DNA from: a plasmid
Reading direction: 5' to 3' (one strand)
Sequence record: NZ_CP067423.1
Length of the DNA: 64,000 nt
Part shown: positions 15,960 through 36,099 of the stretch, piece by piece
Position numbering within the stretch: the first letter of the stretch is position 1
Layout: the number at the start of each line of letters is the position of its first letter
Position numbers and translations under genes: made by a program
The notes under the pieces: generated by a model
Told to the model about the DNA's origin: nothing
The model's database searches: none
What the model saw: the letters and a program-made list of their open reading frames with translations, nothing else

Positions 15960-15986
15960 ATGGAAACCCGCTTTCCCGCCCTAAAC

Positions 15987-19165: not shown

Positions 19166-19282
19166 ATTGACCTCCGGGGTTGCTAGAAACTGGGACCTAT
19201 TTTCTCCTACTTGATCCTGAAGTCAAGTACTGATATTTTGTTGGATGTGGGCTCGCATCAGGCGCGCTCCGGAAAGGCAATC

Positions 19283-19471: not shown

Positions 19472-19505
19472 TCCGAAAAGAACGGCGACCTTCTTTGGTC
19501 GCCGT

Positions 19506-20285: not shown

Positions 20286-20585
20286 TCTCGGTTCTTGCGA
20301 GACGATCAGCAAGCAGCCGCAACCAATTGGCAAAATAGGGAGGGAAAGAAACCCTCCTCGCGGATCGGCCGCACCGCTGACGCCTGCGCTCAACCGCCTG
20401 GCTCGCGATCCCGGCCGCGTCGTCCTTCGCAGGGCTGATTAGCCCCGCTTGGCTTGCCGGGCAGGGATGCTCGACAGGCAGTTGCACCGGCCCGTCCGCT
20501 CCGCGGGCCGGGGGATGTCTTCAGAAAAGAAGACGGAGAAGGACCCGCGATCGGCGGTGTCCGCAACCCGAAACGGAGCATCCCA

Positions 20586-22307
20586 ATGGAACTGAAGTTT
20601 GTCGATCCGCGCGCGCTCAAGGAGAATCCCGACAAGGCGCGGCGCTCCAAATCGAGCCCGCAGGCGGACGCCCTGTTGCTGGCCACGATCAAGGTTGTCG
20701 GCATCGTGCAGCCGCCTGTCGTCGCCCCCGAGACCGAAGGCGGCAACGGCTTTGTCATCGATGCCGGGCATCGTCGCGTGAAGCAGGCAATCGCGGCGGG
20801 CCTCGAGGAAATCGCCGTGCTGGTGATCGAGCGCGCGGAGGACGGTGGCGCCATGCGATCGCTGGCCGAGACGCTCGCCCATGAGCAGCTCAATCCCGTC
20901 GACCAGTGGCGGGCGATCGAGCGCCTGGTTGCGCTCAACTGGACCGAGGAGGCGATCGCCATCGCGCTGGCATTGCCGGTTCGCCAGATCAAGAAGCTGC
21001 GGCTTCTGGCGAACGTCCTGCCATCAATGCTCGATCAGATGGCCAAGGGCGACATGCCCGATGAGCGCCAGCTTCGCACCATCGCTTCCGCCGCACTCGA
21101 GGATCAGAAAGAGATCTGGAAGAAGCACAAGCCATCCAAGGCCGACCCGCAGGTCTCATGGTGGGCTGTCGCGCAGGGTCTGACCAAGACCCGCATGTTC
21201 GCAAAACATGCCAGTTTCGGGGATGATCTGGCACATGCCTACGGAATCGCCTGGGTCGAGGATCTGTTCGCCCCGGCAGACGAGGACAGCCGTTATACGA
21301 CCGACGTCGACGCCTATCTTGGCGCCCAGCAGGAATGGATGGCCAACAACCTTCCCAAGCGCGGCGTCATCGTCGACGCGGGCCAATGGGGCGACGCCAA
21401 GCTGCCACCGAAGGCCGAGCGAGTTTATGGCAAGGCCGGCAAGTCCGATCATACCGCGATGTATCTCGACCGCGAGGGCAAGGTGCAGACGGTCGCCTAT
21501 CGCATGCCCGAGGCAAAGAAGCCGAAGGGCAAGGGTGATGCAACCGACGCCGCAGGTACAGACACGGGGCTGGTCGCTCCCAAGGCCCGTCCGGACGTGA
21601 CGCGCAAGGGGATCGAGATGATCGGGGACTTCCGCACCGATGCGCTGCACGAGGCGCTCGCCCGCGCGCCAATCGAGGAGGACATGCTGATGGCGCTGCT
21701 CGTTCTCGCCTTCGCGGGCAGGAACGTCTCCGTCGATTCCGGTTCCTCGGGCACGGTCTACGGCCACGCGCGGCTGGAGCGTCATGCAGCCCTTCTTTTC
21801 GGGGAAGACGGCAGGCCCGTATACGATCGTGAGACGCTCAACCAGGTCGCGCGTAAGGTCCTGATCGACGTCCTCTCATGCCGGGAGAACAGGACCAACA
21901 GCGGCATCGTCGCTCGGGTCGCCGGCGATACCGTCGGCGCCGACGGCTTCCTGCCGAACATGGGCACGGACGAGTTCATGTCGTGCCTGTCGCGGCCGGC
22001 GCTGGAGGCGTCCTGCAAGGACACGCCAGTCCTGCCGCGTGCCCGCGTCAAGGACACGCGCGCAGCCCTCGTCGAGCACTTCAAGGAAGGCCACTTCGTC
22101 CATCCCTCGGCCCTGTTCGCGCCCGACGTCGCCGAGCTGACGAGCTGGACGGCCCGGTACGCCGCGCCGGACGAGGCTGACGACGACACCGCGCGGGAAG
22201 TCGATGAGCTCGACGGTGATCAGACCGGGGCGACGGCAAACGAGCATCCGGTCGATGACGGCCACACCGTCGAAGAAACTGAAGCCTGGCGCGTCGCCGC
22301 CGAATAG
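20586..22307 (+). CDS. ParB-like nuclease domain protein of the ICE/plasmid leading region
   Basis: The N-terminal ParB/Srx domain is present (VQPPVV...GNGFVIDAGHRRVKQAIAAGLEEIAVLVIE). Start is at ATG 20586 (MELKFVDPRALKENPD). The long C-terminal region has an acidic tail. A rho-independent terminator follows. Confidence 0.75.
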   Translation: MELKFVDPRALKENPDKARRSKSSPQADALLLATIKVVGIVQPPVVAPETEGGNGFVIDAGHRRVKQAIAAGLEEIAVLVIERAEDGGAMRSLAETLAHEQLNPVDQWRAIERLVALNWTEEAIAIALALPVRQIKKLRLLANVLPSMLDQMAKGDMPDERQLRTIASAALEDQKEIWKKHKPSKADPQVSWWAVAQGLTKTRMFAKHASFGDDLAHAYGIAWVEDLFAPADEDSRYTTDVDAYLGAQQEWMANNLPKRGVIVDAGQWGDAKLPPKAERVYGKAGKSDHTAMYLDREGKVQTVAYRMPEAKKPKGKGDATDAAGTDTGLVAPKARPDVTRKGIEMIGDFRTDALHEALARAPIEEDMLMALLVLAFAGRNVSVDSGSSGTVYGHARLERHAALLFGEDGRPVYDRETLNQVARKVLIDVLSCRENRTNSGIVARVAGDTVGADGFLPNMGTDEFMSCLSRPALEASCKDTPVLPRARVKDTRAALVEHFKEGHFVHPSALFAPDVAELTSWTARYAAPDEADDDTAREVDELDGDQTGATANEHPVDDGHTVEETEAWRVAAE

Positions 22308-22337
22308 GCCGCCAATCCACTTCCTCCCAACCCACCC

Positions 22338-22375
22338 CGCCGCCGGCAATCGCGCCGGCGGCGGTTCTGTTTTCA
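22338..22375 (+). terminator. Rho-independent terminator after the parB-like gene
   Basis: CGCCGCCGGC-aatcgc-GCCGGCGGCG is a 10-bp GC stem. It is followed by gttctgtttt. Confidence 0.6.
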
Positions 22376-22400
22376 TCAACAGCACCACTGGAGAAACAAT

Positions 22401-22874
22401 ATGTCCGCTCAATTGATCTACGATCTCGTGCCGCTCGGTTCCATCATCCGCTACTCCGACGGCACACCGCGCCCGCCCGAGCGTCATCGCAAGAAACTCT
22501 CGGCATGGGAGAGCGCCAATAGCGGCGGCCGCCTGATCCGCAAGACGCCAGCCCGGCAGACCGGGCAGTATTCGTCGCCCGCGCATTTCACGCTGCATGA
22601 AGGCGATTATGGCAGCGGCGGTGTCATCGTCCTGCGCGTCCACAAGAGCTTTTCGGTCGATTGCGGCTCGAAGTTCGTGGTGATCTCCCGACCCGCACCG
22701 GGCTCGGTCCAGGTCTTCGATCGCGCCGGCGAGGGTGCCGAACTCGTCTATCTCGCCGCCAACCGGCAGGACGCGGAGACCTGGCTGCAATCTCATCGGT
22801 ATCCTAACGCGGTGCTCGAGGACGTATCGGCCGATACCGCGGCGGCCGACGCCGTCGAGGGGAGGGCGGCATGA
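22401..22874 (+). CDS. Hypothetical conserved element protein
   Basis: The ORF has a good RBS (GGAGAAACAAT-ATG) and is translationally coupled (ATGA) to the next gene. No domain was recognised. Confidence 0.5.
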   Translation: MSAQLIYDLVPLGSIIRYSDGTPRPPERHRKKLSAWESANSGGRLIRKTPARQTGQYSSPAHFTLHEGDYGSGGVIVLRVHKSFSVDCGSKFVVISRPAPGSVQVFDRAGEGAELVYLAANRQDAETWLQSHRYPNAVLEDVSADTAAADAVEGRAA

Positions 22875-23503
22875 ACGCGACTGCTCAAACCGAGGCAACG
22901 ATCGACAACACCTCCGGATTCCCGGAGGTGTATTACGGGCGAACGAGCGATGGCCTCTTCGCGGCACTGGTTGGGGAGAACGCTTTTGCGATGATCCCTG
23001 CCTACAATGGCGGACGCTATCTCGGCCATGCATGGAAGCTGCCTCTGCCCATCTCCGAATGGAAACAGTCCAGCTTCTATGGTCACGGCGGGCAGCTCGA
23101 CGGCAAAGCGGCGTTCCGCGCCCGTGTCGAGGAGAACGCCCGACATCAGGCACAATTGCGTAGACTGGCCCGCCGCAGCATCCCGGCTCGGCAAGCAACC
23201 CCATGGGGGCTCTCGGATCATGCCACGCACTATGCCGAAGGCGTCGTCTGCCATTCGACCCCGAGCCATGGCGGGTTCCATCTCGACCCCGACCGCAATG
23301 CCCACATCCATCCCCTTCTGAGAAGCGCCGACGGCTTCTACGAGGAGGATTGCTGCTGGGCGGCCGTTGCGCAGGCCTTTCCCGATCTTTTCACCGATTT
23401 CGAGAAACGTTGCGCCGAAGAGACCATCCGGCACTGGTATCCCGAGGCCTGGCCGCGATCCCTCACGTCCACACCTAAACGATTGCGGGAGGCCGCCTCA
23501 TGA
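22871..23503 (+). CDS. Hypothetical conserved element protein
   Basis: It is coupled to its flanking genes by 4-nt overlaps. No motif was recognised. Confidence 0.5.
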   Translation: MNATAQTEATIDNTSGFPEVYYGRTSDGLFAALVGENAFAMIPAYNGGRYLGHAWKLPLPISEWKQSSFYGHGGQLDGKAAFRARVEENARHQAQLRRLARRSIPARQATPWGLSDHATHYAEGVVCHSTPSHGGFHLDPDRNAHIHPLLRSADGFYEEDCCWAAVAQAFPDLFTDFEKRCAEETIRHWYPEAWPRSLTSTPKRLREAAS

Positions 23504-23886
23504 CGATTGCAGAGCACATCGCCATAATGGCGCGCATGGAAGCTGCCCGCCGGGAGACGCATGCCCATCTCGGGCTGATCGAGCGGCAGATTGCGGCGCG
23601 CGCGGAGCGCCTGATGACCACCTTCCGCGCCAGATCACGCGATTACCGGAAGTCCAGGTCGACATGGAGCCATGCCGACGAGCAGCTCTACCGGGCCACG
23701 CTATCGGAGCTGAACTTTTCCCGTCACCGCGAGGTCGATGGTCTGTCGCGCAAGCTCGCCCGCCAGGATGCGGCGATCGCCGCCTTCCGTCGCCGGCACG
23801 GGTTCTCGGAGGTCGATCCGGAGCTGGATATGGCGGTCCTCCGCGGCCTGATCCTTCGCAGCGCGTCTCCATGCGCGGTTTCGTGA
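23500..23886 (+). CDS. Hypothetical protein
   Basis: It is the third member of the translationally coupled trio. It is basic and predicted helical. Confidence 0.4.
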   Translation: MTIAEHIAIMARMEAARRETHAHLGLIERQIAARAERLMTTFRARSRDYRKSRSTWSHADEQLYRATLSELNFSRHREVDGLSRKLARQDAAIAAFRRRHGFSEVDPELDMAVLRGLILRSASPCAVS

Positions 23887-24338
23887 GCCCCGACCTGCGA
23901 TCAGGAGGGCAGCCCTGTCCGAAACCGTGTGGCGGGCTGTGCGGGTAACGGGGCAATATCCGGGTAGGGCCTGCGGCGACTGTCCGGCCGTGATGCCGGC
24001 GAAGCGGATTGATCTGTCGCACTTCCTCGCGCGAGCCAATTCATGGAAACGACCCCGTGCCGGTCTTCCCGGCGGGTTTGCTGCGGTCTGAACCGGCGGC
24101 TGACCCCTTCAAGGCCGCTTTGCGCCGCGATGCGGCCGGAGCCCGCCGGTCTCGACAAGGCTGGCCCGCGTTCCGCGCAGGGCTGTTAGCCCCGCTTGTC
24201 CGCAAGCCAACCTTGCTCGCCTGGCAGGCCCCGGACCCTGAAGCGTCCAGTTTCCGCCGGTTCTCTTTGACCGCACCCGCAGGGAAGACCGGCACGGGGC
24301 CGGATCGCCCGAAGGGCATCGCTAGAAAGGATTGCTTC

Positions 24339-24926
24339 ATGTCCAGTTCAACCCGCTCCACCAAGACCAAGGCTCGCGTCGTCCAACTCCGCAAGGGCAC
24401 CACCCTCGAAATGGTGCGCCTGTGCTGCCCGGATGCCAACCAGGCCGCACTCATCTCCGAGAGCTTCGGGCTCGCTGTCCTCGACAGCGACGGTATCCGG
24501 GACTTCCACGAGCGCACCCTGATCGAAAGCGCCGACACCCTCTCCGACGGCCTTTCCGAGAAGGCCATGCAGATCCATCTCCAGCGGATCGTCGGTTCCC
24601 ATGTCGGGTCTGCCTACGGGGCGGGGCAGTTCTATTCCAAGGCTGTCACCGAGGCCAAGGACGCGACCGCCCGGCTCGCCAACGACATGCGCGATGAGGA
24701 TCGCGACGGCCCGGTCGGGTTCGACAGCGCCGCCCAGCGCAAGCGTGAGTTCGCCGCCGACATGGGTATCCAGGCCCACGCTCTGCGCATGGCCGCCGAG
24801 GGCGTGGTCGCAGCCTACGAGCACATCGTCGGCGAGAGCTGGAAGCCCTACGAGCGTCAGGCCGAAAATCCCGGCCAGGCCGTCAGCCGGCAGGCCGCCG
24901 ACCTGCAGATGGCCGCTCTCGGATAG
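24339..24926 (+). CDS. Hypothetical protein (195 aa)
   Basis: Start is at ATG 24339 (MSSSTRSTKTKARVV). A copy of the conserved palindromic motif lies about 140 nt upstream, and a GGCGGAGC-ttcg-GCTCCGCC stem-loop follows the stop. Confidence 0.5.
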   Translation: MSSSTRSTKTKARVVQLRKGTTLEMVRLCCPDANQAALISESFGLAVLDSDGIRDFHERTLIESADTLSDGLSEKAMQIHLQRIVGSHVGSAYGAGQFYSKAVTEAKDATARLANDMRDEDRDGPVGFDSAAQRKREFAADMGIQAHALRMAAEGVVAAYEHIVGESWKPYERQAENPGQAVSRQAADLQMAALG

Positions 24927-25003
24927 GGGCCGCGGGCGGAGCTTCGGCTCCGCCCATCCTCGGGGGCTCCCACCCTTGGGATCGCCCGCCGTTCGAACGC
25001 CAT

Positions 25004-25327
25004 CTATCCCGAGGAGTATCGTCTCGAGGTTGAGGGACTTATCGAGGCATGGCGGCCGGAAGTGTGGGCCCGTTCGACAGAATCCCGCCTCGGCTGATAG
25101 CCTCGCATCCTCTTAGCTCGCAACAGGTCGAGGAATAGGCTGACCGCATCTAGCTCGTTGTCGAACGAATGCTGGACCGTTCGGCCTCGTGTTCCGATCC
25201 GGCCCCACCGGCGAACGAGGCGGGTCTGGCCGAACAGGGTCTCCTCGATCGACAGCGCGTAGAACCGCGCCATCCTCCGGTCCGGGTCTGTGCGTTCGAC
25301 ATAGAGATGGTATGGCTGCGCGATCAT
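25004..25327 (-). CDS. WGR-domain protein
   Basis: The WGR signature is LFGQTRLVRRWGRIGTRGRT...KRMRGY. The start is assumed at the internal Met (MIAQPYHLYVE). The ORF extends to 25381. Confidence 0.55.
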   Translation of the reverse strand: MIAQPYHLYVERTDPDRRMARFYALSIEETLFGQTRLVRRWGRIGTRGRTVQHSFDNELDAVSLFLDLLRAKRMRGYQPRRDSVERAHTSGRHASISPSTSRRYSSG

Positions 25328-25711
25328 GCTGAGCAGAATCGCGCAGCCGGAATCCGTCGTCCAATGACAGGTTTGAATCACTGGGAAGGGATCGATTTAT
25401 TCCCGTGATAGGTGGCGGGAACTTCAGCAGGTATAGGGCGGCCTTACCCGCGTCCGGCTTGCGCGGGACCGGGAGACGGAGGGAAGCAGGAAGACGCATG
25501 GCGCGGCCGGCGCAATCGCGGCCGTCACGATTGGTGGTCCTGCTCCGGTCCTCGTTCCGCGAAACGGCGAAGCCGTCCTCCACTGCCGTTCCGGCCCGGC
25601 TGCGACCTCTCTCATTCTTCCGATTCATCCTCCGGGTTCGCGGACCTGCGGTCCTCTCGCGGGCGGACCTCGTGACGGCCGCGATCGGCGCGGCCTCGAA
25701 TGGAGGTTCGA

Positions 25712-26638
25712 ATGATGAACAGGAAAGACAGCAAACCCCGCGTCGACATCTACGCGAAGATCACCGACCGCATCGTCGCGGATCTCGAGAAAGGCGTCCG
25801 CCCATGGGTAAGACCCTGGAGCGAAGCCAACACCGCCGGCCGCATCACGCGACCGCTGCGGCATAATGGAACGCCCTACCAGGGCATCAACATCATCCTG
25901 CTCTGGTCGGAGGCGGTCGCACGCGGCTTCGCTTCGCCCATCTGGATGACGTTCAAGCAAGCGATCGAGCTTGGCGGGCATGTCCGCAAGGGCGAGAGCG
26001 GCTCGACCGTCGTCTATGCCAGCCAATTCACCAAGACCGAAACCGACGAGCGCGGCGATGAGGTCGAGCGCGGTATCCCGTTCCTTAAGGCCTATTCGGT
26101 CTTCAACGTCGACCAGATCGAGGGATTGCCGGACCACTATTACGGTGCGCCGCCGCCGGTGACCGATCCCGTCACGCGCATCGCCCACGCTGATGCGTTT
26201 TTTGACGCGACCGGCGCCAGGGTCGTCTATGGCGGCGCCAAGGCATTCTACGCGCCCTCGTCCGACCACATCCAGCTCCCAGTCTTCGAGAGCTTCCGCG
26301 ACGCGGAATCCTTCGTTGCCGTCAGGGCGCACGAGACCATCCACTGGACAGCTCCGGCCCACCGGGTCAACCGCGATCTCAGCCGCTACCACAAGGATCG
26401 TAGCGAACGCAGTCGCGAGGAGCTGATCGCCGAACTGGGGGCGGTTTTCCTCTGCGCCGATCTCGGCATCGTACCGGAGCTCGAGCCGCGGCCTGACCAC
26501 GCCAGTTACCTCGCGTCCTGGCTCGAGGTGCTCTCCAACGAGAAGCGCTTCATTTTCTCGGCCGCCGCGCACGCTCAACGCGCAGCGACCTACCTGCACG
26601 ATCTTCAGCCGGCGGCCAGGATTGCGGAGGCGGCCTGA
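25712..26638 (+). CDS. ardC: ArdC-type antirestriction protein (N-terminal ssDNA-binding domain plus C-terminal zincin-like metalloprotease)
   Basis: The ArdC N-terminal domain is present (YAKITDRIVADLEKGVRPWVRPW...GTPYQGINIILLW...PIWMTFKQA). The C-terminal HExxH motif is HETIHWT. Confidence 0.85.
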   Translation: MMNRKDSKPRVDIYAKITDRIVADLEKGVRPWVRPWSEANTAGRITRPLRHNGTPYQGINIILLWSEAVARGFASPIWMTFKQAIELGGHVRKGESGSTVVYASQFTKTETDERGDEVERGIPFLKAYSVFNVDQIEGLPDHYYGAPPPVTDPVTRIAHADAFFDATGARVVYGGAKAFYAPSSDHIQLPVFESFRDAESFVAVRAHETIHWTAPAHRVNRDLSRYHKDRSERSREELIAELGAVFLCADLGIVPELEPRPDHASYLASWLEVLSNEKRFIFSAAAHAQRAATYLHDLQPAARIAEAA

Positions 26639-27057
26639 TGCCAGGGCCCGACCGTTGCCGTGCGGGAACTCTGCCGCTGGCCGGTCAATGACGGGAGGTC
26701 GGGATGGGGATGGCACCTCTCGCCGCGCGGGGATCCGCAAGGTGATGCCGATGTAGGGACGTCCGTCTTCATTCCGGTTGTTTCTGCTACGGGCACGCCC
26801 AACTGCGTCCTCGATGTGGCTGGTCTGACCGAAGGCCGATCTCGCTGCGCTCGGTCTCGCTCTCATCCCCGCAACGGCTGGTCTCGACTTTCTTCCCCTG
26901 ACGGCTTCGCCGCCATTCCGCGCGGATCAAGAAAGTCTCATCCTGCCGCCCTCCACTGACGTTCCGGCCCGTTGGGTGCCGGTCGATCGCCTCCGGTCTG
27001 TCGACCGCCATCGAGGTCGCGGCGGTCGCGGCCCGAGAAATCAAAGGAATGAGACAA

Positions 27058-27369
27058 ATGGCTACCATCGGCACCTTCACCTCCACCGGCACCGGCTTCA
27101 ACGGCGTCATCAAGACCCTCAACCTCAACGTCAAGGCCAAGCTGGTCCGCGTCGAGAACCCTTCCGACAAAGGTCCGCACTTTCGCATCTTCGCGGCAGC
27201 CAACGTCGAACTGGGCGCCGCCTGGCAGAAGACCTCCAACGAGGGCCGCGACTACCTTTCGGTCAAGCTGGACGATCCGAGCTTCCCCGCTCCGATCTAT
27301 GCCACCCTGGTTGAGGTGGAAAGCGAGGAAGGCCTTCAGCTGATCTGGTCCCGACCGAACCGGGACTGA
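27058..27369 (+). CDS. DUF736 domain protein
   Basis: The DUF736 signature is [30 protein letters not shown]...GPHFRIFAA. Confidence 0.75.
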
Positions 27370-27450
27370 GGCTCCCGCCAGAGGGCTCCGCCGCAAGGCG
27401 GGGCCTTCAGCCTTCCACCGACGAGCAGCCACAACCGAAAGGAACCATAC

Positions 27451-27645
27451 ATGACGACTACCAACCGCGCCGAAGCGAAGGCCCTTCATCCTCAGGACAT
27501 CGCCGTCTGGCCGGACGGAACATGGGCCGAACTCGGCGACGTCTGGAACGGCGAATACGGCTTCATGTCCGACGACTACGAGGTCGTGCCGCTCGAGGAC
27601 CATGCCCGTCTGAAGGCCCTCGGCATCGACGGAGAGGTGCTGTGA
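27451..27645 (+). CDS. Small hypothetical protein (64 aa)
   Basis: The ORF has an RBS (GAAAGGAACCATAC-ATG) and a terminator immediately downstream. Confidence 0.4.
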   Translation: MTTTNRAEAKALHPQDIAVWPDGTWAELGDVWNGEYGFMSDDYEVVPLEDHARLKALGIDGEVL

Positions 27646-27667
27646 CCGGCGCCACTGCACGCCCTCG

Positions 27668-27695
27668 CCGCCCCGGAGCGGGGCCTTCTGCTTGA
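27668..27695 (+). terminator. Candidate rho-independent terminator
   Basis: GCCCCG-gag-CGGGGC is a stem-loop. It is followed by the T-rich cttctgctt. Confidence 0.45.
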
Positions 27696-27803
27696 CGCCA
27701 CGGTCAAATGGAATGGCCAGCCTTAGCGGCGAAAGGACTGCCGAGACTGGCTTTCGAGCCGAATTTCGGCTATACAAAAGAGCAAGTTACAGGAGCCTGA
27801 AAC

Positions 27804-28094
27804 ATGACCGCAACGCTAATGGAAAGCCCCGTTGTCGCGGATCGAGCACACGCGTTGCGGCTTGCCAAACAGGTCATCAAGACCCTCGACCCGAAGCCGC
27901 TTGAGCCCATCGTCGCAGCGATGCTGACCGACGGCCACAAGGCCGCGCTTTCGGCAATGGCCGTGTCGCGAGATGAGCCGAACCTGTTCGAACAGTTCCT
28001 CGTCCTGTGTGAAGAGGCCGGGCGGTTGAGCGAAGCGGATTGCGATCAGCTGGGCGAAGCCTATGTCGAAGCGAGGCGTGCCCGTGCCGCTTGA
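27804..28094 (+). CDS. Small protein upstream of, and translationally coupled to, the Fic gene (possible cognate partner or antitoxin)
   Basis: The protein is 96 aa. Its stop overlaps the Fic start in an ATGA arrangement. No [ST]xxxE[GN] inhibitory motif was found. Confidence 0.4.
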   Translation: MTATLMESPVVADRAHALRLAKQVIKTLDPKPLEPIVAAMLTDGHKAALSAMAVSRDEPNLFEQFLVLCEEAGRLSEADCDQLGEAYVEARRARAA

Positions 28095-29479
28095 TGAGTG
28101 ACCCCTATCTTTACCCGGGCACAACAGTCCTCATCAATCATTTCAACATCAGGGATCAGGCCAAACTCGACAGCAAGGAGCGTCGGGAGACCCTGAAGAC
28201 GTTGAAGGGTCTCTACGACAATCCGGTCAAGGGCGAATTCGACCTCGCGCACCTGCTGGAAATACACCGGCGCGTCTTCGCGCCGGTGTATCCGTTCGCC
28301 GGCGAAATCCGCCGCATCGATATGGTCAAGGCCGAGGAGAAACTGGGCGGCGGCAGTGTCGAGTACGCGCCGTTCCATCTGGCGCGTCTCCAGGCCGAAC
28401 ACTGCCTGAAGCAACTCAATGCCCGCGACTGGTCGGGTCTCATGGACCTGTCGCGGCCGGAGGACATGGCCTCATTTGCAGGCATGGTTGTCGACCTCTG
28501 GAAGGTCCATCCGTTCCGGGAAGGCAATACGCGCACGACCATGACCTTCATGCACCAGTTTGCGGCGGCCAAGGGGTTCGCGCTCGACCGTGAGTTGATC
28601 CGTACCAATGCTGAATATGTCCGCCATGCGCTGGTGGTCGGCACCCATGGCGAAACTCATTATCTGACACGCATCCTGACCGACGCGCGCCAACGCGAAC
28701 ATGCGCGCGAGCAGAGCCAGGCGCGCATGGGGAACCAAAGCCGCACTGACATTGGACAGTCGGAGCGGGCTGTACTGCTTCCCGGCCGTACCCTTGCCCC
28801 GGAAGTTCTCAAGGCCGAGCTGCAAGAACGGATTGCCGCTTCCGAAAGCGCCACCGAGGCTATGAAACGCCTTATCACCACGGCAAAGGCGGTATTTGCC
28901 GACCACGGGCCGGTGGTGGAAATTATCCGGAATGCCGCTCTTGAGGGCGAGATCGGCAATCGGCAGGTGATTTCGGAGTTGCGGGATGCTCCGGAGCGTT
29001 TCGGGCCGCTTGCCGGAAGGGACGCTATTCTTGCGAGCCGGCAGGAGCGGGAGGCACACCGGCAAGCGATCGCTGCAAAGCGCACGCTTCGCGGGATCGC
29101 CGAGAGTTACCTCAAGATCGTGTACGGAATCCGGCAGACGATGCAGCAGCAGCGTCATGATGAGGTGCGGCGGGCCAGCGTGGAGGTCCGGCGGCCAAGC
29201 GGCGAGCTCCTGAGCGCGATTGATAGGGGTGATGCGCTGTCGCCCGAGCTCAAGGTCGAGCTGCGGCAGACCACGAGCGCATTCGAGCGCCGTTTCGGCG
29301 ATGATCTGGCCGCATTGCGCTCGGGCAAGAATCTCGGTCCACTTGCCACCAGGCACGGCGTCGACGAGAAACGGCTCGAGGAAGCGACAGGCGTACTGAA
29401 GGCGCTCGACCGAGCCCAGGCTCAGGAGTGCACCAGGGCACAATTACGGTCTCTCGATAGGCACGGCCCCACCCGATAA
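28094..29479 (+). CDS. Fic/Doc-family protein (filamentation induced by cAMP; probable AMPylase-type toxin) with a long C-terminal extension
   Basis: The Fic core motif HPFREGNTRTTMTF is present. It is an HPFx[DE]GNxR variant with T replacing the second G. The N-terminus is typically Fic-like (MSDPYLYPGTTVLINHFNIRD). Confidence 0.8.
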   Translation: MSDPYLYPGTTVLINHFNIRDQAKLDSKERRETLKTLKGLYDNPVKGEFDLAHLLEIHRRVFAPVYPFAGEIRRIDMVKAEEKLGGGSVEYAPFHLARLQAEHCLKQLNARDWSGLMDLSRPEDMASFAGMVVDLWKVHPFREGNTRTTMTFMHQFAAAKGFALDRELIRTNAEYVRHALVVGTHGETHYLTRILTDARQREHAREQSQARMGNQSRTDIGQSERAVLLPGRTLAPEVLKAELQERIAASESATEAMKRLITTAKAVFADHGPVVEIIRNAALEGEIGNRQVISELRDAPERFGPLAGRDAILASRQEREAHRQAIAAKRTLRGIAESYLKIVYGIRQTMQQQRHDEVRRASVEVRRPSGELLSAIDRGDALSPELKVELRQTTSAFERRFGDDLAALRSGKNLGPLATRHGVDEKRLEEATGVLKALDRAQAQECTRAQLRSLDRHGPTR

Positions 29480-29756
29480 TCCCATGCCGTCTGGAACGTG
29501 GCATTCAGCTGTGCCGGCCGGCCCGCCGAGCGCGGTCGTTCAGCCCTCTTTGGACCTCCCCTTGTGGGGGACATCTGTCGTACGTTTTCTCGATCTGAAC
29601 GAGCAGGCAGCGCCATGCGCCGTTTCTCCACAACCCAACCTTTGCGCTGCAGCTGAAGTCGACCGTTTGCGGACCAAGACAGCGGAGGATTACCGGAATT
29701 CCGTTCCATGACGCCGGACTCTAAGCTAAACCTCACCAGAGGGCGGGAGGACGAAG

Positions 29757-30620
29757 ATGATGGTGGGGTTAGATTTTGTCGCACTAGACGTAGAAACAGC
29801 GGATAGCAGCTTTCCAGAAAGTATCTGCCAAATGGGCTTCGTGATTGTTCGCGAAGGGCGCATCGTCGAGACTTTTACGCAGACCGTAAATACACATCAT
29901 CGGTTCGGGTGGTGGCAACAAGCCAATTTGTCGATCACCGAAGAGGACATTGATCGAGCTCCGCCGTTTTCTGAGATCGCTCGATCGATTGCGCATCTGA
30001 TGTGTGGGGCGGTCTTTAGTCATACACCCTATGACCGTTTCGCGGTCGGTCGCGCTTGCGACGCGTGCGGGCACAGCTTCGCAGAGACTACTTGGCTTGA
30101 TAGTGCGCAAGTCGTGCGACGAGCATGGCCGGAAAAGTACGGGAAGACGGGGTACGGATTGAAGAATGTCGCGGCCGATCTAGGCATTGAATTTCTGCAC
30201 CATGACGCTGGCGAAGATGCGCGGGCTGTGGCGGAAATTGTCATTCGAGCGAGCCTAGAGTGCTCACTAGATGTAGCCGGATGGGCAGAACGGGTCCGAA
30301 GACCAATCTTAGGCAATTCAAGCGCAAAAACCGACCTACGTCGGGACGGCAACATTGATGGACCGCTGTATGGCGAGGTTGTCGTCCTCACAGGGGGCTT
30401 CGATTTGCGGCAGGAAGAACAGGCCAATTTGGCCGCCTATGCAGGCTGCGAGGTGGAAAATAGCGTTACCAAGAAAACGACGTTGGTCGTCGTGGGTGAT
30501 GATCGTTTCGCGCGTGGGGAACGTTCCGGCAAGTGGAGAAGGGCCGAGGAATTGGCGGGCCAAGGCATTCCTATTCGGGCCATGTCTGAATCCGATTTCC
30601 GCGCGCTCATTGCAGATTGA
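29757..30620 (+). CDS. DEDDh 3'-5' exonuclease (DnaQ-like) fused to a C-terminal BRCT-like domain
   Basis: The Exo I motif is LDVETAD and the Exo III motif is HHDAGEDARAV. The C-terminal GEVVVLTGGF...TKKTTLVVVGD... resembles a BRCT fold. The region has lower GC than its surroundings. Confidence 0.7.
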   Translation: MMVGLDFVALDVETADSSFPESICQMGFVIVREGRIVETFTQTVNTHHRFGWWQQANLSITEEDIDRAPPFSEIARSIAHLMCGAVFSHTPYDRFAVGRACDACGHSFAETTWLDSAQVVRRAWPEKYGKTGYGLKNVAADLGIEFLHHDAGEDARAVAEIVIRASLECSLDVAGWAERVRRPILGNSSAKTDLRRDGNIDGPLYGEVVVLTGGFDLRQEEQANLAAYAGCEVENSVTKKTTLVVVGDDRFARGERSGKWRRAEELAGQGIPIRAMSESDFRALIAD

Positions 30621-30938
30621 ACGGCACACGCCTTCCGCAAGTCTTGAATCGGCGTGGGCGAGGAAGAGGACGACGGGGTTCAATGACCGCACGCCACCCC
30701 GAGCGGCCGTGCAGCGTCACGCTGGTGCTAAAATTTAGCGTACGAGCTCGGCGGTTTAATGGCCCAGAAGCTGACCTTTGACCGGTTCGGTGTTGACCTT
30801 CAGGTTCCGACTGATATCCGCCCCCTTTGGTCGGCGCTTAGAATCTGCCGGCCTGTGCCTGCTTCACACGATTGATCATACGCAGCGTGTCAGTATGACC
30901 GGCGTCGGCGGGAATACCGCGGCAACGGTTGACTCCAT

Positions 30939-31211
30939 TTAGCCCGAAGCGTCTACGGATGAGAGTTTCCTGATCTCGGCAAGGTCATCGTCTGTCTTGC
31001 GCAGAATGAGTTGGAAGCACGCATCGCACACACGCCGTTCAGTCGAATAGGCCTGCCCAAGCTTTGGAATCTCGATGCAGGTTGTTCCCATGACGAGGTC
31101 GTCGTGGCAGCGATAGCATTTGCTGAGGCGTTTGACGGGAGTCCGCTTGGGGCGGCCGTTCGTGCCTCCAATCAGCGAAGGCGTTGGCCCTCTAGGATTC
31201 GATTTTGTCAT
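30939..31211 (-). CDS. Small Zn-ribbon protein
   Basis: Two CxxC/H pairs are present (CYRCHDD...CDAC). It lies immediately downstream of, and overlaps, the helicase gene. The start is uncertain; the ORF runs to 31244. Confidence 0.4.
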   Translation of the reverse strand: MTKSNPRGPTPSLIGGTNGRPKRTPVKRLSKCYRCHDDLVMGTTCIEIPKLGQAYSTERRVCDACFQLILRKTDDDLAEIRKLSSVDASG

Positions 31212-33222
31212 ACTCCGCCTTCGCTTTGCGAACGCGCCTGACAAGCACTTGCAGCAGGTCGTCCAGGTTATCGAGGACAGAACGGAATTCTTCTGTTGTC
31301 GCCTGCTGCCTCTCTTTGCCCAGGCGTTTTTGCATTTCCTTGTTCACCATCATCAGCGCACAGATGTAGTTGTTCCTGCCGGTGAGCTTCAAGGATTTGT
31401 ATTTGTAGACCATCTCATTGCCGGTCTGTTTAAGCTCAACATGATTCAGCAACACGTTTGCGAGGCGTTTAGCCTGCTCCTGCATGCGCTTCCTGGCCTC
31501 TTCCCACTCACGCTGTGGCTGGACCATGAAAGGTGCCGTGGCCGACCTCTTTCGCATTGGAGACTGCTGCGCGAGCCGAACCATTTCCTCAGCCTTGCTG
31601 TCGTCGAGGCCGAGGAGCTTCAAACGTTCCCGTAGGTCCGCGACGATCTGCGTGTCCTCGACCGACGTGAAATCTTCTTCCCACAAGGAATCGACGACCT
31701 CACCGTGGACGACGACCTGGTCGCCCGCACGAAGCCGCGCGCTACCGTCGAGCACCCCTTGCGGTACCTCCGGTTCGTCGCCGCCAATGACCTTGTCCCA
31801 GAACGCCTGGTCGTCGTTCTCGAACTCCTTGAATTCCTTCAGGCGTGCGTCGAGGTTCATGCCCAGATGGGTGACGATATGGCCGACATTGTCTGGATGA
31901 CCCGGATCGTTCTGCACAACGACCCGCATTATGCGCCCGACAAACTGGATGTAGGGCGCCAATGACCGGAACGGGCGGAAGATCGCTGCAACGCTCAATT
32001 TGGGATGGTCGAACCCCTCGCCAAGCATCTGCACCTGGATGATACAATCGAGTGAGCCGTTGCGCAGTGCCGCAAGAATGGCCGCCTGCTCATCCTCCGT
32101 CTGCTTGCTATGGATAACGTCGGCGTTGAAGCCGCGCTCCTGATACAGCGAACGGATTTCCCGCGCATGATTGATGGAGCACGCGACTGCGATGAGCTGG
32201 TGCTGCGTCCCGCTTTGTCTAAGCTCATCGAGCTTCTGCAAACTGCTATCGACGATGTGCTTGTTGCACAGCCTAGCAAGCGCCACGCCGCGGCTGAACC
32301 ATTCTTCCTCCTTGAGCTTCAGCACCTCGTCCAAGGTGTACGTTCGCCCGCCGGCGTCGGAAAATCCGAGCTCAATGGTCGACGGAGCGACGTAACTTGC
32401 CTTGAGGCGCTTGATATAGCCTTTCAGGGTGGCGTTGCGGAATGGATACCGGAACACCAATTCGCCATCGAGTTCCTGGCGATCGCCCCGGAATGGGGTC
32501 GCCGTAAGCAGGATGACCTTGGCGTTTGGAAAACGCTCGATGACTTTCTGCCAGCTAGCGGCCGCGCTGTGGTGCGCCTCATCAACTATGATCATGTCGA
32601 AAAAGTCATCGGGAAACTGGGTCAGCCACTTATCGACGTTGGTCGCGAGCTGATGGACGTTCGTGATGACGATATGGGACTTTGTTGCTATCGAGATGTT
32701 GCCGCTATCCAGCGTACATGCCAACGGACCAGACAACATCTGGTCAGCGCTGAGCACACCCGCTTTCCGCCAGAAGCATTTCTGCCGGTTTGTGATGTCC
32801 ATCGCTTCGTAAAGCCCGTCCTTGATGGTGAGGTTGGGCGCGATAACAATGACCCTGCCCTCGGAGAGTCCAAACGGCAGGAGAGAAGCCAGGCCGGTCT
32901 TGCCGCATCCGACCGGAACCTGGAGGATCGCCTTATTCTTTCCCGCCCGGAAGAATTCATAAGTGCGCAGATAGCCTTCGCGCTGTGGGTCGCGGAGGTG
33001 GTCGTTCCCGTCGATGACGAATTCAGCGTCCAGGAAGAACGACTGCAGGGGGCGGGCGGTGCGTACCCACTGGTCGAGCCCGCTCTTTTCGAAGATCCAT
33101 TTCTTGCCGATCTTCCGCGCCGGGATGCGGTTCTCGCGCGCCATCGCATACAGCGCGGTCTTGCCCATTCCTAAGTAGATCGCGGTCTCTTCAAGAGAGA
33201 GCCAACCGTCAGTATCCGTCAT
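31192..33222 (-). CDS. Excisionase/MerR-type HTH domain fused to an SF2 (DEAD/DEAH, ResIII-like) helicase
   Basis: The N-terminal HTH_17-like segment is LSLEETAIYLGMGKTALYAMARENRIPARKIGKKWIF. Walker A is VGCGKTG, the DEAH box is IIVDEAHHS, motif III is LLTATP, and the helicase C region has a QxxGR-type motif. The gene has lower GC than the backbone. Confidence 0.75.
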   Translation of the reverse strand: MTDTDGWLSLEETAIYLGMGKTALYAMARENRIPARKIGKKWIFEKSGLDQWVRTARPLQSFFLDAEFVIDGNDHLRDPQREGYLRTYEFFRAGKNKAILQVPVGCGKTGLASLLPFGLSEGRVIVIAPNLTIKDGLYEAMDITNRQKCFWRKAGVLSADQMLSGPLACTLDSGNISIATKSHIVITNVHQLATNVDKWLTQFPDDFFDMIIVDEAHHSAAASWQKVIERFPNAKVILLTATPFRGDRQELDGELVFRYPFRNATLKGYIKRLKASYVAPSTIELGFSDAGGRTYTLDEVLKLKEEEWFSRGVALARLCNKHIVDSSLQKLDELRQSGTQHQLIAVACSINHAREIRSLYQERGFNADVIHSKQTEDEQAAILAALRNGSLDCIIQVQMLGEGFDHPKLSVAAIFRPFRSLAPYIQFVGRIMRVVVQNDPGHPDNVGHIVTHLGMNLDARLKEFKEFENDDQAFWDKVIGGDEPEVPQGVLDGSARLRAGDQVVVHGEVVDSLWEEDFTSVEDTQIVADLRERLKLLGLDDSKAEEMVRLAQQSPMRKRSATAPFMVQPQREWEEARKRMQEQAKRLANVLLNHVELKQTGNEMVYKYKSLKLTGRNNYICALMMVNKEMQKRLGKERQQATTEEFRSVLDNLDDLLQVLVRRVRKAKAEYDKIES

Positions 33223-33715
33223 ACATCCTCACAATCTGATATCTAGCGATAGCAAACGACAGATAGAATTGCAAAGGAAATCGGCGGTGGTAGTTGTCGC
33301 CCGCATTTGAAGGCGCCACAGTGGGTTTTAGCCTGGGCAGGAGCGCCACTTGTGCCCAACGCCTGGTTTCGAGCCCCCGGATGAGTGGCATTGGATCATG
33401 GGTCACGTTGCTGGCCGTTCGACAAAGGTCAGCAACTGTCCGAATGCCGAAATCCGAGTCCTTGCCGGGACCCAGCCACGTCGGTTTTTGTCGTGATGCT
33501 TGAATGATGATCCCCCTTCGTCAGCGAGAATAGTTGCGTGAACAGCCGCCCGTCATGCGGCCAAGGCACAGAGTCCCGTGCCGTCCCTGTTTTCCACCCC
33601 GCCCAAGGCGGGGCGAAGCGAAGCGGAGCAGGCGAGGGGGCTGAACGCGCTTCCCACATTGCGCCGAAGAGAAGCCCCCGAGCTTGTGGTAAACGGGGGC
33701 GGGACGGCTGCCGTT

Positions 33716-35647
33716 TCAGGATCCAGCTGCTCCCGTCTTCGGTTGGAAATTGCTCTTGCCGACGAGCGCCGCCATTTCCGGACGGCGGAAGTAGATGGCG
33801 CGACCGCAACGTAGCGGCGGATTACCGCCGGTGAGGATGATCTGCTCATCGGCGCGCATCTGGGTGACTTCATGCGGCAGGATCAGCGGGCGTTGCGAGA
33901 GCTGTTGGGAGCGGGTGCGGGACGAACCCATGTCGCGCGAGGTGCGGCTGACGTGGTTCACCTCTACCGTGGTCATCCCGCAGCGCTCGGAAATGTACTT
34001 CGCCGTTTCCGGATCATTGATCGCCGAGAACGACACCCAGGAAGCGGACTCGAACCATTTGCTGGTCGCGTCGCGCCCACCAAAGGCCTCCCGCATCTGC
34101 CCGAGCGACTGGAACAGCATCAGGAGTGTGATGCCATATTTGCGGCCGGCGTCGCGGGCGGTTTCGACGATGCGCATGTAGCCGAGGCGGGCGGCCTCAT
34201 CGAGCAGGAACAGGGCGCGCTCTTCGAGATCGCCATTGCGATTGTAGATCGCCTTGAGGAACGCTCCGATGACGACGCGAGCCATACCGGGGTGATTTTC
34301 CAAGGTAGACAGATCGACATTGATGAACACCGTCGTGCGCCCATTGGCGATGTCGTCCGTCCTGAAAGTGTTGCCCGACACGATGGCCGCGTAGCTGTCG
34401 TAGGAGAGCCAGTGCGTCTCCTTGGCGGCGGTCGCATAGACGCCGGAGAAGGTTTGCGGCGTCATGTTGATGAAGGGGGCGATGACCTCTTTGACGAACC
34501 GGGAGGTCGAGCTTTGATAAAGATCGGCGAGCTTTTCCTTGAGCGTTTCTTCCGGCTCGGCCAGTCGCGCGCGGACGATGCGCAGCGATCGTTCGCGCTT
34601 GGTATCGTCCGGATCGGACAGCATCACGTCGGCGATGACGCCGGTGATGAGCTGTTCGGCCGAGACGCGGAAGAAATCGTCGGCGCCGGAGGTGACGCGT
34701 GGTTTTTCCGACATCAGCCACGCCGCCACGGAGGCAATGTCTTCCTCCGGCGCATTGCCGAAGCGGCCGATCCAGTCGAGCACGTTGAACCCGATGTCGG
34801 GTCGTTTCGGATCGAGAATGAGCACGTCCTGACCATGCGCTTCGCGATGGGCGGCGACCATCGGCGCAATCTCGGTCGAGGGATCGAGGATGATCATCGA
34901 GCCCTTGAACTTGAGCGCCGTCGGCACGACCACGGAGGTGGTCTTGTAACCGCCGGAACCAGCAAAGACGATGCCGTGCGTCGAGCCAAATCCGCAGTCG
35001 AAGCAGACGAGCGGTGATTTTCCGCCCTTGCCCCACGTCTCCTTGCGGCGCGGATCGAAGTTGACGCCGGCGACGGAATCCTCGTCGACGCGATAGCGCT
35101 CACCGATGACGATGCCACCGCTTTCGGGAAAGAGTCCTGCGATTGTGGCGCTGTCCATCCAATGGCTATCGCCATGGATGGCGCGACGGCCGGAGAGCCG
35201 TTTCGGACCCGTCGCGCCAAAGACGGCATTGCCGCGCAGCGCAACCCGCAATCCGAACATGCCGGCGACGAAGGCCGTCGCCGCGCCGCCGATAGTGTAA
35301 AGGTCAAGTAAGGAAAACAGCGTTCCTTGCGGCACCTGGCTGGCGAAATCGGACAGGCGTAGCGTCTCCGAAATGGCGGCGAACGCGGCGGCGGCAACCC
35401 CGCCGATCAGGACGCCGAGGCCGGCCGACTGAATGGCAAGTGAGCCCTTGGCGGCAAAGAGGAAAATGACGCCGATCGCGGCCGCGGCGGCGTAGGGGAC
35501 GACAAGGCCGCCGCGCCCGAGGGTCTGGTAGCTTTCCGGCGAAGTGCCGAAAGCGGCGAGCCAGGACTCAATCCCCTGGAGCCCCAGAACGGCTCCCAAC
35601 ATCATCATCGCCGGTGCGGTCAGCAGCATCAGTTTCTTCGCTGTCAT
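33716..35647 (-). CDS. traG: Type IV coupling protein TraG (VirD4 family)
   Basis: TraG/VirD4 motifs are present (HGIVFAGSGGYKTTSVVVPTAL, ILDPSTE, FLLDEAARLG). Start is chosen at MTAKKLMLL (35647). The ORF extends to 35755. Confidence 0.9.
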   Translation of the reverse strand: MTAKKLMLLTAPAMMMLGAVLGLQGIESWLAAFGTSPESYQTLGRGGLVVPYAAAAAIGVIFLFAAKGSLAIQSAGLGVLIGGVAAAAFAAISETLRLSDFASQVPQGTLFSLLDLYTIGGAATAFVAGMFGLRVALRGNAVFGATGPKRLSGRRAIHGDSHWMDSATIAGLFPESGGIVIGERYRVDEDSVAGVNFDPRRKETWGKGGKSPLVCFDCGFGSTHGIVFAGSGGYKTTSVVVPTALKFKGSMIILDPSTEIAPMVAAHREAHGQDVLILDPKRPDIGFNVLDWIGRFGNAPEEDIASVAAWLMSEKPRVTSGADDFFRVSAEQLITGVIADVMLSDPDDTKRERSLRIVRARLAEPEETLKEKLADLYQSSTSRFVKEVIAPFINMTPQTFSGVYATAAKETHWLSYDSYAAIVSGNTFRTDDIANGRTTVFINVDLSTLENHPGMARVVIGAFLKAIYNRNGDLEERALFLLDEAARLGYMRIVETARDAGRKYGITLLMLFQSLGQMREAFGGRDATSKWFESASWVSFSAINDPETAKYISERCGMTTVEVNHVSRTSRDMGSSRTRSQQLSQRPLILPHEVTQMRADEQIILTGGNPPLRCGRAIYFRRPEMAALVGKSNFQPKTGAAGS

Positions 35648-35858
35648 TATCGAATATCGCCTTTCCGATTGCGGCCAATCGAGCGCGCTCGGTTGCGTCG
35701 CTGAGCCGCGCAGCCGCATCGATGAGGGCGCCGAGAATGACGGCGCGATCCGCACTGCGAAGTCCCGCCTTCACGACGAGACCGCCGAGCTGGATCTTCT
35801 CGCGCGCATCCTTCTTCCGGGCTTCCGTTTGTGACGCCCGGTAGCGGCGCTCATGCAT
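35568..35858 (-). CDS. traD: Conjugal transfer protein TraD (Ti-type)
   Basis: The TraD core IQLGGLVVKAGL...ILGALIDAA is present. An acidic tail overlaps the traG 5' end in another frame. Confidence 0.6.
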   Translation of the reverse strand: MHERRYRASQTEARKKDAREKIQLGGLVVKAGLRSADRAVILGALIDAAARLSDATERARLAAIGKAIFDNDSEETDAADRTGDDDVGSRSGAPGD

Positions 35859-36099
35859 CAGGAGCGCCCGTTTGAGAGCGAGCAGCCGGCCCGGAGGTCT
35901 TCTGTTTCGTCCCCGCTTGAAATCGCTTTGCCATCTCTTCGAAGCCTGTGACCAGCTCTGTGTCGGATGCGTTCACTTCGCCTAATCCGGCCTTCAGCGC
36001 GAGCCGGCCGATGCGTTCGGCCTCCTTGGTTTCGGCAAGCTTCAGCTGCTCCTGTAGGCGTTCGATTTCCTCGCGGATACGGGAAGAGGGTCGTCTCAT
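35851..36099 (-). CDS. traC: Conjugal transfer protein TraC (Ti-type oriT accessory protein)
   Basis: Start is at ATG 36099 (MRRPSSRIREEIERLQEQLKLAE...). It lies divergent from traA across the oriT region. The ORF extends upstream to 36615, which is probably spurious. Confidence 0.7.
   Translation of the reverse strand: MRRPSSRIREEIERLQEQLKLAETKEAERIGRLALKAGLGEVNASDTELVTGFEEMAKRFQAGTKQKTSGPAARSQTGAPDA

Follow-up and report, generated by a model that had tools for sequence, protein, structure and literature searches.

The stretch of DNA analysed here, referred to as the window, comprises 64,000 nucleotides of a plasmid (sequence record NZ_CP067423.1), and our study centers on positions 29480-33715, an islet of lower GC content located between a fic gene and traG. 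The gene content given for it in a preliminary description is all present: an exonuclease with a BRCT domain, a fusion of an HTH_17 (helix-turn-helix, HTH) domain with a superfamily 2 (SF2) helicase whose translation contains GCGKTG, DEAH and LLTATP, and a small CxxC protein whose gene overlaps that of the helicase. A 9-kb query covering the islet and its surroundings (27000-36000) matches plasmid pMDW3 of Aminobacter sp. MDW-2 (NZ_CP060200.1) with 100% identity, and two sister plasmids equally well. The genes and features of the locus, with their coordinates and strands, are listed below (ORF, open reading frame).

28094-29479, + strand: Fic protein (ORF list).
29757-30620, + strand: exonuclease with BRCT domain, 287 aa (Pfam RNase_T 2.3e-8, BRCT 1.4e-4).
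30621-30938, no strand: spacer between the convergent exonuclease and small-protein genes, probable junction of both imports.
30939-31244, - strand: small ORF with four cysteines (Cys4); likely true start ATG 31211, giving 30939-31211 and 90 aa.
31192-33222, - strand: helicase with HTH_17, ResIII and Helicase_C domains, 676 aa (Pfam).
33223-33282, - strand: predicted promoter/operator of the helicase cassette (comparison across loci).
33283-33715, no strand: non-coding stretch from the cassette promoter to the traG stop, with no annotated gene.
33716-35755, - strand: traG (ORF list).

The GC content of 29480-33715 is 57.6%, compared with a mean of 62.0% (sd 2.0) for stretches of equal length in the window; no other 4.2-kb stretch there has a lower GC content, and values as low as this occur in just 0.7% of such stretches. 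The drop that had been noticed earlier is thus genuine yet modest. It is also uneven, as the GC content of third codon positions (GC3) is 0.556 in the exonuclease gene, 0.637 in the small gene and 0.742 in the helicase gene, with a range of 0.73-0.82 in the backbone genes (ArdC, DUF736, Fic, traG and traA). By this measure, the exonuclease gene is clearly foreign and the helicase gene lies near the backbone range. The check for flanking repeats around 29.48 and 33.7 kb, direct or inverted, returned merely short matches at chance level, so the islet has no flanking repeats. A hairpin resembling a traG terminator is found near 33592-33612, inside the non-coding stretch, and backbone similarity to a Pelagibacterium plasmid starts again at 33571. 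An Rfam scan of 27.0-36.5 kb gave no relevant match, including in the spacer at 30621-30938.

The islet had been proposed to be an independently acquired insertion, and our comparisons uphold its foreign nature relative to the backbone, but they point to two or more acquisitions instead of one. In the Ti-type transfer regions of the plasmids used for comparison, from Pelagibacterium, Rhizobium leguminosarum and Allorhizobium, the genes run ArdC-DUF736-(small genes, sometimes a BID-domain protein)-WGR-traG, with neither the exonuclease nor the helicase, so the interval from DUF736 to traG is a variable cargo site. The islet therefore combines an atypical composition with absence at the same position in three related plasmids, which are the marks of horizontal acquisition. 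We then fetched about 80 loci encoding close relatives of the helicase and compared them with the window using blastn. In essentially every case, nucleotide similarity starts at 30944-30964 and ends at 33274-33282; the shared span, 30944-33282 (about 2.34 kb), is made up entirely of the helicase gene, the small ORF and some 60 nt upstream. In none of these loci is the exonuclease gene found within 10 kb of the helicase, which indicates that the exonuclease and the helicase pair arrived separately, and the point at which the cassette similarity stops marks the spacer at 30621-30938 as the junction between imports. The earlier suggestion of a three-gene system that includes the exonuclease is contradicted by these data, the exonuclease being found alone in unrelated contexts. 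With high confidence, we interpret the islet as a composite of at least two unrelated imports, with an independent exonuclease, placed in the cargo interval between the DUF736/Fic-BID genes and traG of a Ti-type conjugative plasmid. Three parts that look like one can now be told apart: a VbhT-like Fic-BID module, a DnaQ-BRCT exonuclease and a helicase cassette.

The helicase and the small CxxC protein did turn out to be a real and strictly conserved pair. According to tblastn, the small ORF directly follows the helicase gene in 85 of 92 loci, and the seven loci without it either are contigs cut short or belong to distant relatives with a small gene of their own. An ATG aligned with position 31211, producing an exact 20-nt overlap with the 3' end of the helicase gene, is conserved in 56 of 75 loci, and it is this conservation that leads us to set the length of the true product at about 90 aa in the window, against 83 aa in most relatives. 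The two proteins diverge together from the window pair (Spearman rho 0.88).

The small protein has an N-terminal motif, PRGPTPSLIGGTNGRPKR, with the invariant pattern P-x-G-x-x-PSLIG-x-x-x-G-x-P, four invariant cysteines (C32, C35, C62 and C65), a conserved C45 and a C-terminal helix. It belongs to no Pfam family, FYVE matches being sub-threshold, and DUF1998 was not detected even at E <= 10 across 44 members. Its AlphaFold2 model (pLDDT 83) matches the zf-PARP, LigIII and C1 folds weakly and not significantly; the zf-PARP pattern (PF00645) is C-x2-C-x28-30-H-x2-C. From this model, we read the protein as a probable treble-clef-type zinc finger with a C-terminal helix, and take PARP-like sensing of DNA nicks or ends as a possible lead. 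The family forms 118 clusters at 50% identity among 1.84 billion representatives, where only stand-alone proteins and gene-calling artefacts were seen, with no informative domain fusion. The gene is missing from the PLSDB gene tables (which are incomplete), both for this record and for the two plasmids most closely related to it, those of Rhizobium sp. B21/90 and Paracoccus aerodenitrificans, and is called by other annotation pipelines as an 83-aa hypothetical protein; being absent from gene tables, it may let the pairing escape surveys based on annotated proteins.

The helicase consists of an HTH_17 domain (residues 7-55), ResIII (75-245), Helicase_C (329-434) and a conserved C-terminal region of about 240 aa. 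Its scores with ResIII (92.8 bits, cutoff 22.5) and Helicase_C (52.2 bits, cutoff 23.5) place it in SF2, and those with PF12728 (44.8 bits, cutoff 27) and TIGR01764 (35.8 bits, cutoff 28.8) identify its N-terminus as an excisionase-type domain. The motifs GCGKTG, DEAH, TATP and QFVGRIMR are invariant across 41 relatives. No Pfam domain was found in the C-terminal region, whose profile retrieved nothing better than E = 0.12 from the PDB. Among solved structures, the nearest by sequence are SauUSI (7clg, 2.4e-12), RadD, HsdR and XPB; by fold, Foldseek returns RadD and XPB (1e-10), a coarse ranking that derives from a poor AlphaFold model (pLDDT 60, shallow alignment). PADLOC and NCBIfam gave only partial, sub-threshold matches, the PADLOC ones being mREase_IV (3.2e-17), PbeA (9e-16), DrmA (6.9e-3) and PsyrT (3.9e-4, over Helicase_C). 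The preliminary description had left room for a housekeeping helicase of the RecQ/RecG type; the core groups instead with restriction- and repair-type SF2 motors (SauUSI, HsdR, PbeA, RadD and XPB), and the restriction-type matches suggest that the protein is a translocase on double-stranded DNA.

The repair-type relatives raise the question of whether the three genes could be a MrfAB-like or RadD-like unit for DNA repair or processing that includes the exonuclease-BRCT protein. A helicase, a zinc-binding protein and a DEDDh exonuclease are adjacent in the window, just as MrfAB joins an SF2 helicase bearing a zinc domain to a 3'-5' exonuclease (PMC12458937); JGI pipelines annotate the helicase as ‘RadD’, and RadD is among its nearest structures. 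However, the synteny described above largely refutes such a unit, and within the window the exonuclease gene lies on the opposite strand, convergent, and with a different GC3. The NCBIfam model for RadD (YejH, NF053632) gives 74.1 bits against a cutoff of 720, DUF1998 is not matched, the DrmA match is poor, and the helicase is found in variable islands and mobile elements rather than in conserved positions of core genomes. We consider this explanation very improbable.

The comparison across loci also uncovered the regulatory region of the pair. In 73 of 79 loci, from Proteobacteria to the candidate phyla radiation (CPR), three TATCATTTG-type boxes with a 10-bp phase lie over a sigma-70-like promoter. 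The family consensus of the promoter, TTGACA-N17-TATCAT, is close to the sigma-70 consensus and is overlapped by the boxes TGTCATTTG, CTATCATTTG and ATATCAAATG, the second and third of which together form a 20-bp palindrome centred on GATATC; the motif stops about 17 nt before the start codon of the helicase. In the window, the -35 element is TTGCAA (33274-33269) and the -10 element TATCGC (33251-33246), separated by a 17-nt spacer, and the boxes in 10-bp phase are TGTCGTTTG (33261-33253), CTATCGCTAG (33252-33243) and ATATCAGATTG (33242-33232). This copy of the motif (33232-33275) has a degenerate middle box and is the only one in the 64 kb. Because the copy is degenerate, a sigma-70 scan of the islet reported no promoter under its scan rules, and the element becomes visible only through the comparison of loci.

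HTH_17 and excisionase-type domains, such as those of the Xis, TorI and AlpA families, typically bind phased direct repeats. Our main argument for binding and autorepression is that the repeats co-vary with the HTH domain in divergent members: an Omnitrophota locus has three AAATGATACT repeats upstream of the -35 element, and a Rhodococcus locus with a different HTH sequence has three AATGTTGT repeats. The Salmonella homologue examined, which lacks the HTH, overlaps rep, so it has no upstream region of its own. We infer from these sequences that the operon is autorepressed by the fused HTH_17 domain through binding to the boxes, and we regard it as highly probable that the helicase/zinc-finger pair is an autonomous, autoregulated cassette. 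The conservation of promoter and operator across phyla offers a regulatory model that can be tested directly and a construct that is ready to clone.

Three direct phased repeats also resemble iterons, and they could be read as loading sites at which the helicase is recruited to an origin as a helper of plasmid replication; in 5.9-kb enterobacterial plasmids, the homologue without HTH starts within the 3' end of rep, with the small gene coming after it. Adjacency to rep was nevertheless seen only in that group of plasmids, and not in Acinetobacter, Xanthomonas, Peribacillus or Leptospira plasmids or at chromosomal loci. Moreover, the boxes overlap the gene's own -10 element, as an operator would, and occur at a single site in the window. 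A role in replication is hardly to be expected.

The helicase has more than 4000 relatives. Proteins 65-96% identical to it are encoded in Alpha-, Beta- and Gammaproteobacteria, Bacteroidota, Planctomycetota, Nitrospirota, Acidobacteriota, Chloroflexota and CPR, both in isolates (Paraburkholderia, Parapusillimonas, Thioalkalicoccus, Rhizobium, Xanthobacter, Thauera, Luteimonas, Chryseolinea of the Bacteroidota and Planctomicrobium of the Planctomycetota) and in metagenome-assembled genomes (MAGs) of Nitrospirota, Acidobacteriota, Chloroflexota, Melainabacteria, Omnitrophota and several CPR lineages; a Methanolobus MAG holds a copy with 54% identity. DNA identity falls to 66-75% where protein identity holds at 65-85%, a combination that looks like old and repeated transfer under strong purifying selection and not like a single recent sweep. 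The pair is kept in relatives with 30-43% identity from Paracoccus, Rhodococcus, Salmonella, Xanthomonas and Acinetobacter, and a subfamily of helicases without HTH (33-40% identity) also has a small downstream partner, which carries C-x5-H...C-x2-C in Salmonella, Xanthomonas and Acinetobacter plasmids and has no cysteine in Peribacillus and Leptospira. In small mobilizable enterobacterial plasmids of this subfamily (locus L006, a 5.9-kb Salmonella plasmid, 1-2918), rep, helicase and partner, here the C..H..C..C gene, form an operon with successive overlaps. A phage origin of the pair was considered and rejected: INPHARED phages hold no close homologue of the helicase, and IMG/VR contains the pair on two contigs only, with the gene at the contig end in both.

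Such promiscuous transfer, together with the fact that the pair is the main cargo of plasmids of 6-10 kb and adjoins HipAB and RelE modules on small plasmids, could also be expected of an addiction pair similar to a toxin-antitoxin module, in which one product would be harmful when unbalanced, autoregulation and translational coupling would hold the ratio, and loss would be costly. The overlapping genes and the putative autorepression through a DNA-binding domain fused to the first gene would suit this scheme. Against it, an ATPase of 676 aa is atypical as a toxin or an antitoxin, and the gene sizes are atypical for a type II module; there is no similarity to known toxin families, the PsyrT match being confined to Helicase_C; and a helicase so extremely conserved over its whole length suggests enzymatic work on a substrate that is universal. 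Addiction therefore appears improbable.

The genes around the pair are diverse. The 149 immediate neighbours in about 75 loci belong to 107 Pfam families, none of which occurs in more than three loci, so there is no conserved third component. In nine alphaproteobacterial loci (for example L003, 8279-8743, and L035, 12275-12751), a Cys/His-rich ORF of 154-158 aa without a Pfam match follows the pair on the same strand; it is absent from the window, and perhaps one clade has it as an optional third component. The pair is frequently located within defence or mobile-element islands. Neighbours of the defence type include methyltransferases (MTases), restriction endonucleases, AlwI, HNH, SMC_N/AAA_21 and, according to PADLOC, MADS mad2/mad3, PsyrT, AriA and CapP, and those of the mobile-element type include resolvases, integrases, transposases, ArdC, DUF932 and a coupling protein. 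Single loci adjoin Hachiman together with a type ISP enzyme, Shedu, or a dCTP deaminase with a Tn7 TnsA-like gene, and one locus adjoins BrxC/D-like, Cas3-like and Gabija-like genes next to genes of an integrative and conjugative element (ICE).

In the window itself, the region 8600-27400, on the traG side of the origin of transfer (oriT), carries a set of genes typical of conjugative leading regions.

8600-27400, no strand given: leading-region-type genes (DUF3991-toprim, DUF1419, DUF3085, two ParB-like, DUF2130, WGR).
10827-15959, no strand given: fusion of a methylase and an SNF2-type helicase, 1710 aa, part of this set.
25700-26638, + strand: ArdC, part of this set.
27049-27369, + strand: DUF736, part of this set.

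This setting brings in another explanation, that of a module for establishment or anti-defence which would help incoming plasmid or ICE DNA to survive or settle, for example by displacing restriction or other surveillance complexes or by aiding the conversion and replication of the transferred strand, with a burst of expression on entry from a strong autorepressed promoter, like that of acr-aca operons or leading-region genes. The pair adjoins traG here, on the side of ArdC, DUF736, the ParB-like genes, DUF3991-toprim and the large MTase-helicase; it adjoins ArdC and a MobQ relaxase in Paracoccus p2, lies near ArdC in Xanthomonas, and elsewhere adjoins DUF932, RadC, DUF3577 and AcaB in an ICE or stands within the type IV secretion system (T4SS) cluster of an ICE. 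The lack of a nuclease in the pair and its near absence from phages agree with such a role as well. Other observations speak against it. In the window, the pair is transcribed away from oriT, on the strand of traG and opposite to ArdC, DUF736, Fic and the exonuclease gene (the direction of transfer is assumed here, with the relaxase gene entering last). The pair also occurs in CPR genomes and chromosomal islands without conjugation genes nearby and on small non-conjugative plasmids, and many of its neighbours are defence systems of the host type. We judge establishment to be unlikely, although it is the main rival and deserves more weight than addiction.

Because of its neighbours, its restriction-type motor and its near absence from phages, we rank defence or interference first among the functions of the pair: the helicase/zinc-finger pair would be a self-regulated, nuclease-free defence or conflict module, an interpretation that falls slightly short of an even balance of belief and doubt. 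On this interpretation, HTH_17 at the N-terminus of the helicase would bind the phased boxes and repress the operon, giving high expression on arrival in a new cell and low expression afterwards. The small zinc-finger protein would be translationally coupled to the helicase through the 20-nt overlap and would most likely bind its conserved C-terminal region, with a role as sensor of, or adaptor for, some DNA structure or foreign factor. The XPB/RadD/HsdR-like SF2 motor would then translocate on, or unwind, invading or replicating foreign DNA, and, having no nuclease of its own, the complex could interfere by stripping or remodelling replication complexes or by passing the DNA to host nucleases. 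Both the complex of helicase and partner and its role in conflict with foreign DNA are thus inferred. A more specific version, in which the pair is an unnamed nuclease-free immune system (anti-phage or anti-plasmid) with its own promoter and operator, whose treble-clef and possibly PARP-like finger senses a DNA structure on the invading DNA and whose XPB/RadD-like motor then blocks its replication, can be put forward only tentatively. For the islet as a whole, we hold the best explanation to be that of two imports with the cassette as an autoregulated defence-type pair, and we are evenly divided on whether it is correct.

Several points weigh against a function in defence. Very strong conservation across phyla is unusual for genes engaged in an arms race. 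Neither a nuclease nor any other recognisable effector domain was found in the helicase or the small protein by Pfam, PADLOC or the PDB profile of the C-terminal region, and, to our knowledge, action without a nuclease is rare among helicase-based systems. Some loci lie outside defence islands, among metabolic genes with IS3 or within a T4SS cluster of an ICE, and several, including the window, lie among genes of the leading-region type (ArdC, DUF932, ParB-like), which fits establishment or anti-defence equally. The neighbourhood counts are raw counts. Finally, just as had been stated earlier for the three genes together, the pair matches no named system: no name, model or description of it was found in Pfam 2025, PADLOC 2.0 (including candidate systems), NCBIfam 2026 or full-text literature searches. 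Should the pair nonetheless serve in defence or conflict, it would do so as a compact and portable module, with two genes and 60 nt of control DNA in 2.3 kb, evidently working in very different cells, and, as an immune pair, it would rank with the best conserved and most often exchanged systems of this type, from Proteobacteria to CPR and a methanogen.

The second import, the exonuclease, is predicted to be of the DnaQ/RNase T-type 3'-5' family with a C-terminal BRCT domain. The RNase_T match reaches 35.2 bits (cutoff 24), and the DEDDh motifs seen in the translation (DVETAD, YD and H-x4-D) are intact. The BRCT match (PF00533, residues 203-263) is marginal at 22.4 bits (cutoff 21.3) and is backed by matches to the BRCT region of LigA and by precomputed BRCT calls in relatives. 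About 1900 relatives have the same architecture of 285-295 aa. The two-domain architecture is that of the DnaQ-BRCT proteins of the NCBIfam PRK06195/PRK06063 type, but the protein scores below all NCBIfam equivalog cutoffs, including PRK06195, ‘DNA polymerase III epsilon’ (98.7 bits, cutoff 373). It also matches the unvalidated PADLOC candidate PDC-S48 (411 positions) at 1.6e-20, with its nuclease half only, over model positions 5-180.

Close relatives of the exonuclease are found on plasmids and islands in varied contexts, next to a thermonuclease, to a type ISP enzyme with orphan methylases, or to a TIR protein, and distant ones (45-47% identity) in core-like chromosomal neighbourhoods with ilvC/leuA/recJ or the ribosomal proteins L21/L27. 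We treat it as a putative stand-alone copy of the ordinary DnaQ-BRCT family carried by a mobile element. Its gene faces oriT, as do those of ArdC, DUF736 and Fic, an orientation compatible with expression early after transfer, from the strand that enters, provided that the traCDG side leads, a polarity that is assumed. A homologue with 85% identity (locus L108, 6164-9362) adjoins the integrase of a P4-like (DUF3987) island and is flanked by a second RNase_T gene and by an AAA_12 + MTES_1575 helicase. Such positions in satellite islands often hold defence cargo. In Paracoccus aestuarii (locus L007, 4015-5864), a thermonuclease gene stands directly upstream of an exonuclease-BRCT homologue, and the window has a thermonuclease-family gene after traH (about 41934-42320, + strand), which may be a coincidence.

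Further parts of the window were recorded. A BID domain (Pfam Bep_C_terminal 4.9e-8; NCBIfam VbhT 1.4e-28, below cutoff) lies at the C-terminus of the Fic protein, which is therefore a VbhT-like Fic toxin and could serve as a substrate translocated through the T4SS; in Allorhizobium pAtS4b, the corresponding position is also taken by a protein with a BID domain. An ORF of 96 aa without a family match (27804-28094, + strand) overlaps the start of the Fic gene and may encode its antitoxin. Three copies of a GC-rich hairpin-forming 24-mer (CCGCCGCAAGGCGGGGCCTTCAGC-like) are present at 27388-27411, 27668-27691 and 27932-27955, at intervals of 264-280 nt, so that each of the small genes that follow DUF736 has one copy behind it. 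They are probably terminators; the first overlaps a weak, sub-threshold Rfam match to BjrC68 (E = 0.075). A complete Hma defence system occupies 42405-52046 on the - strand.

42405-45563, - strand: HmaA-like SNF2 helicase.
45560-48505, - strand: HmaB, DUF1156 methylase.
48502-48981, - strand: ORF of 159 aa between HmaB and HmaC, with no family match.
48978-52046, - strand: HmaC, DUF499 ATPase.

The interval between HmaB and HmaC is the position that Payne et al. exploited to discover new defence genes (bioRxiv 10.1101/2024.01.29.577857).

When compared with known systems, the pair shares features with several of them and coincides with none. Its motor domains have their best sequence matches in SauUSI (type IV restriction), HsdR (type I) and PbeA, but only the motor aligns (residues about 190-434). 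In SauUSI, the alignment covers just profile positions 318-553 of 945, or residues 325-545 of 7clg, whose PLD nuclease is N-terminal and whose target-recognition domain is C-terminal; the PLD or PD-(D/E)xK nuclease and the target-recognition domains of these enzymes are absent from our helicase. RadD is similar in having a zinc element, and archaeal XPB (XPB-Bax1) in working with a separately encoded partner; the pair differs from them in being carried by mobile elements and not by the core genome, and its partner is a small zinc finger instead of the Bax1 nuclease. Hachiman, which adjoins one relative of the pair, is likewise a helicase-centred module of two genes found in defence islands and plasmids, yet neither HamB nor HamA/DUF1837 was matched in PADLOC or Pfam, and the zinc-finger partner has no catalytic motif.

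The DISARM and YprA-family systems come closest in design, as they combine an SF2 helicase with a separately encoded zinc module (PMC12458937). DrmA/DrmB of DISARM and the YprA-family systems (MrfAB, Druantia and ARMADA) also reside in defence islands, and MrfAB adds a DEDDh exonuclease (PMC12458937). Their defining features were looked for in the pair and not found, and for this reason we set it apart from them: it has no DUF1998/OB-CON module, its small protein of 83-90 aa has no Pfam match, DrmA is reached only at 6.9e-3, and there is neither a methylase, nor a nuclease partner, nor a conserved third gene. The adjacency of helicase and DEDDh exonuclease that is conserved in MrfAB was seen in 0 of about 80 loci. 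The fused HTH domain and the operator are, conversely, particular to the pair family. In this respect, the pair resembles acr-aca operons, the controller (C) proteins of restriction-modification systems and Xis-type HTH_17 proteins, in which an HTH likewise acts on repeats over its own strong promoter, but here the HTH is fused to the very enzyme that it would regulate. We file the pair as a putative, so far unnamed variant of the helicase-centred conflict modules.

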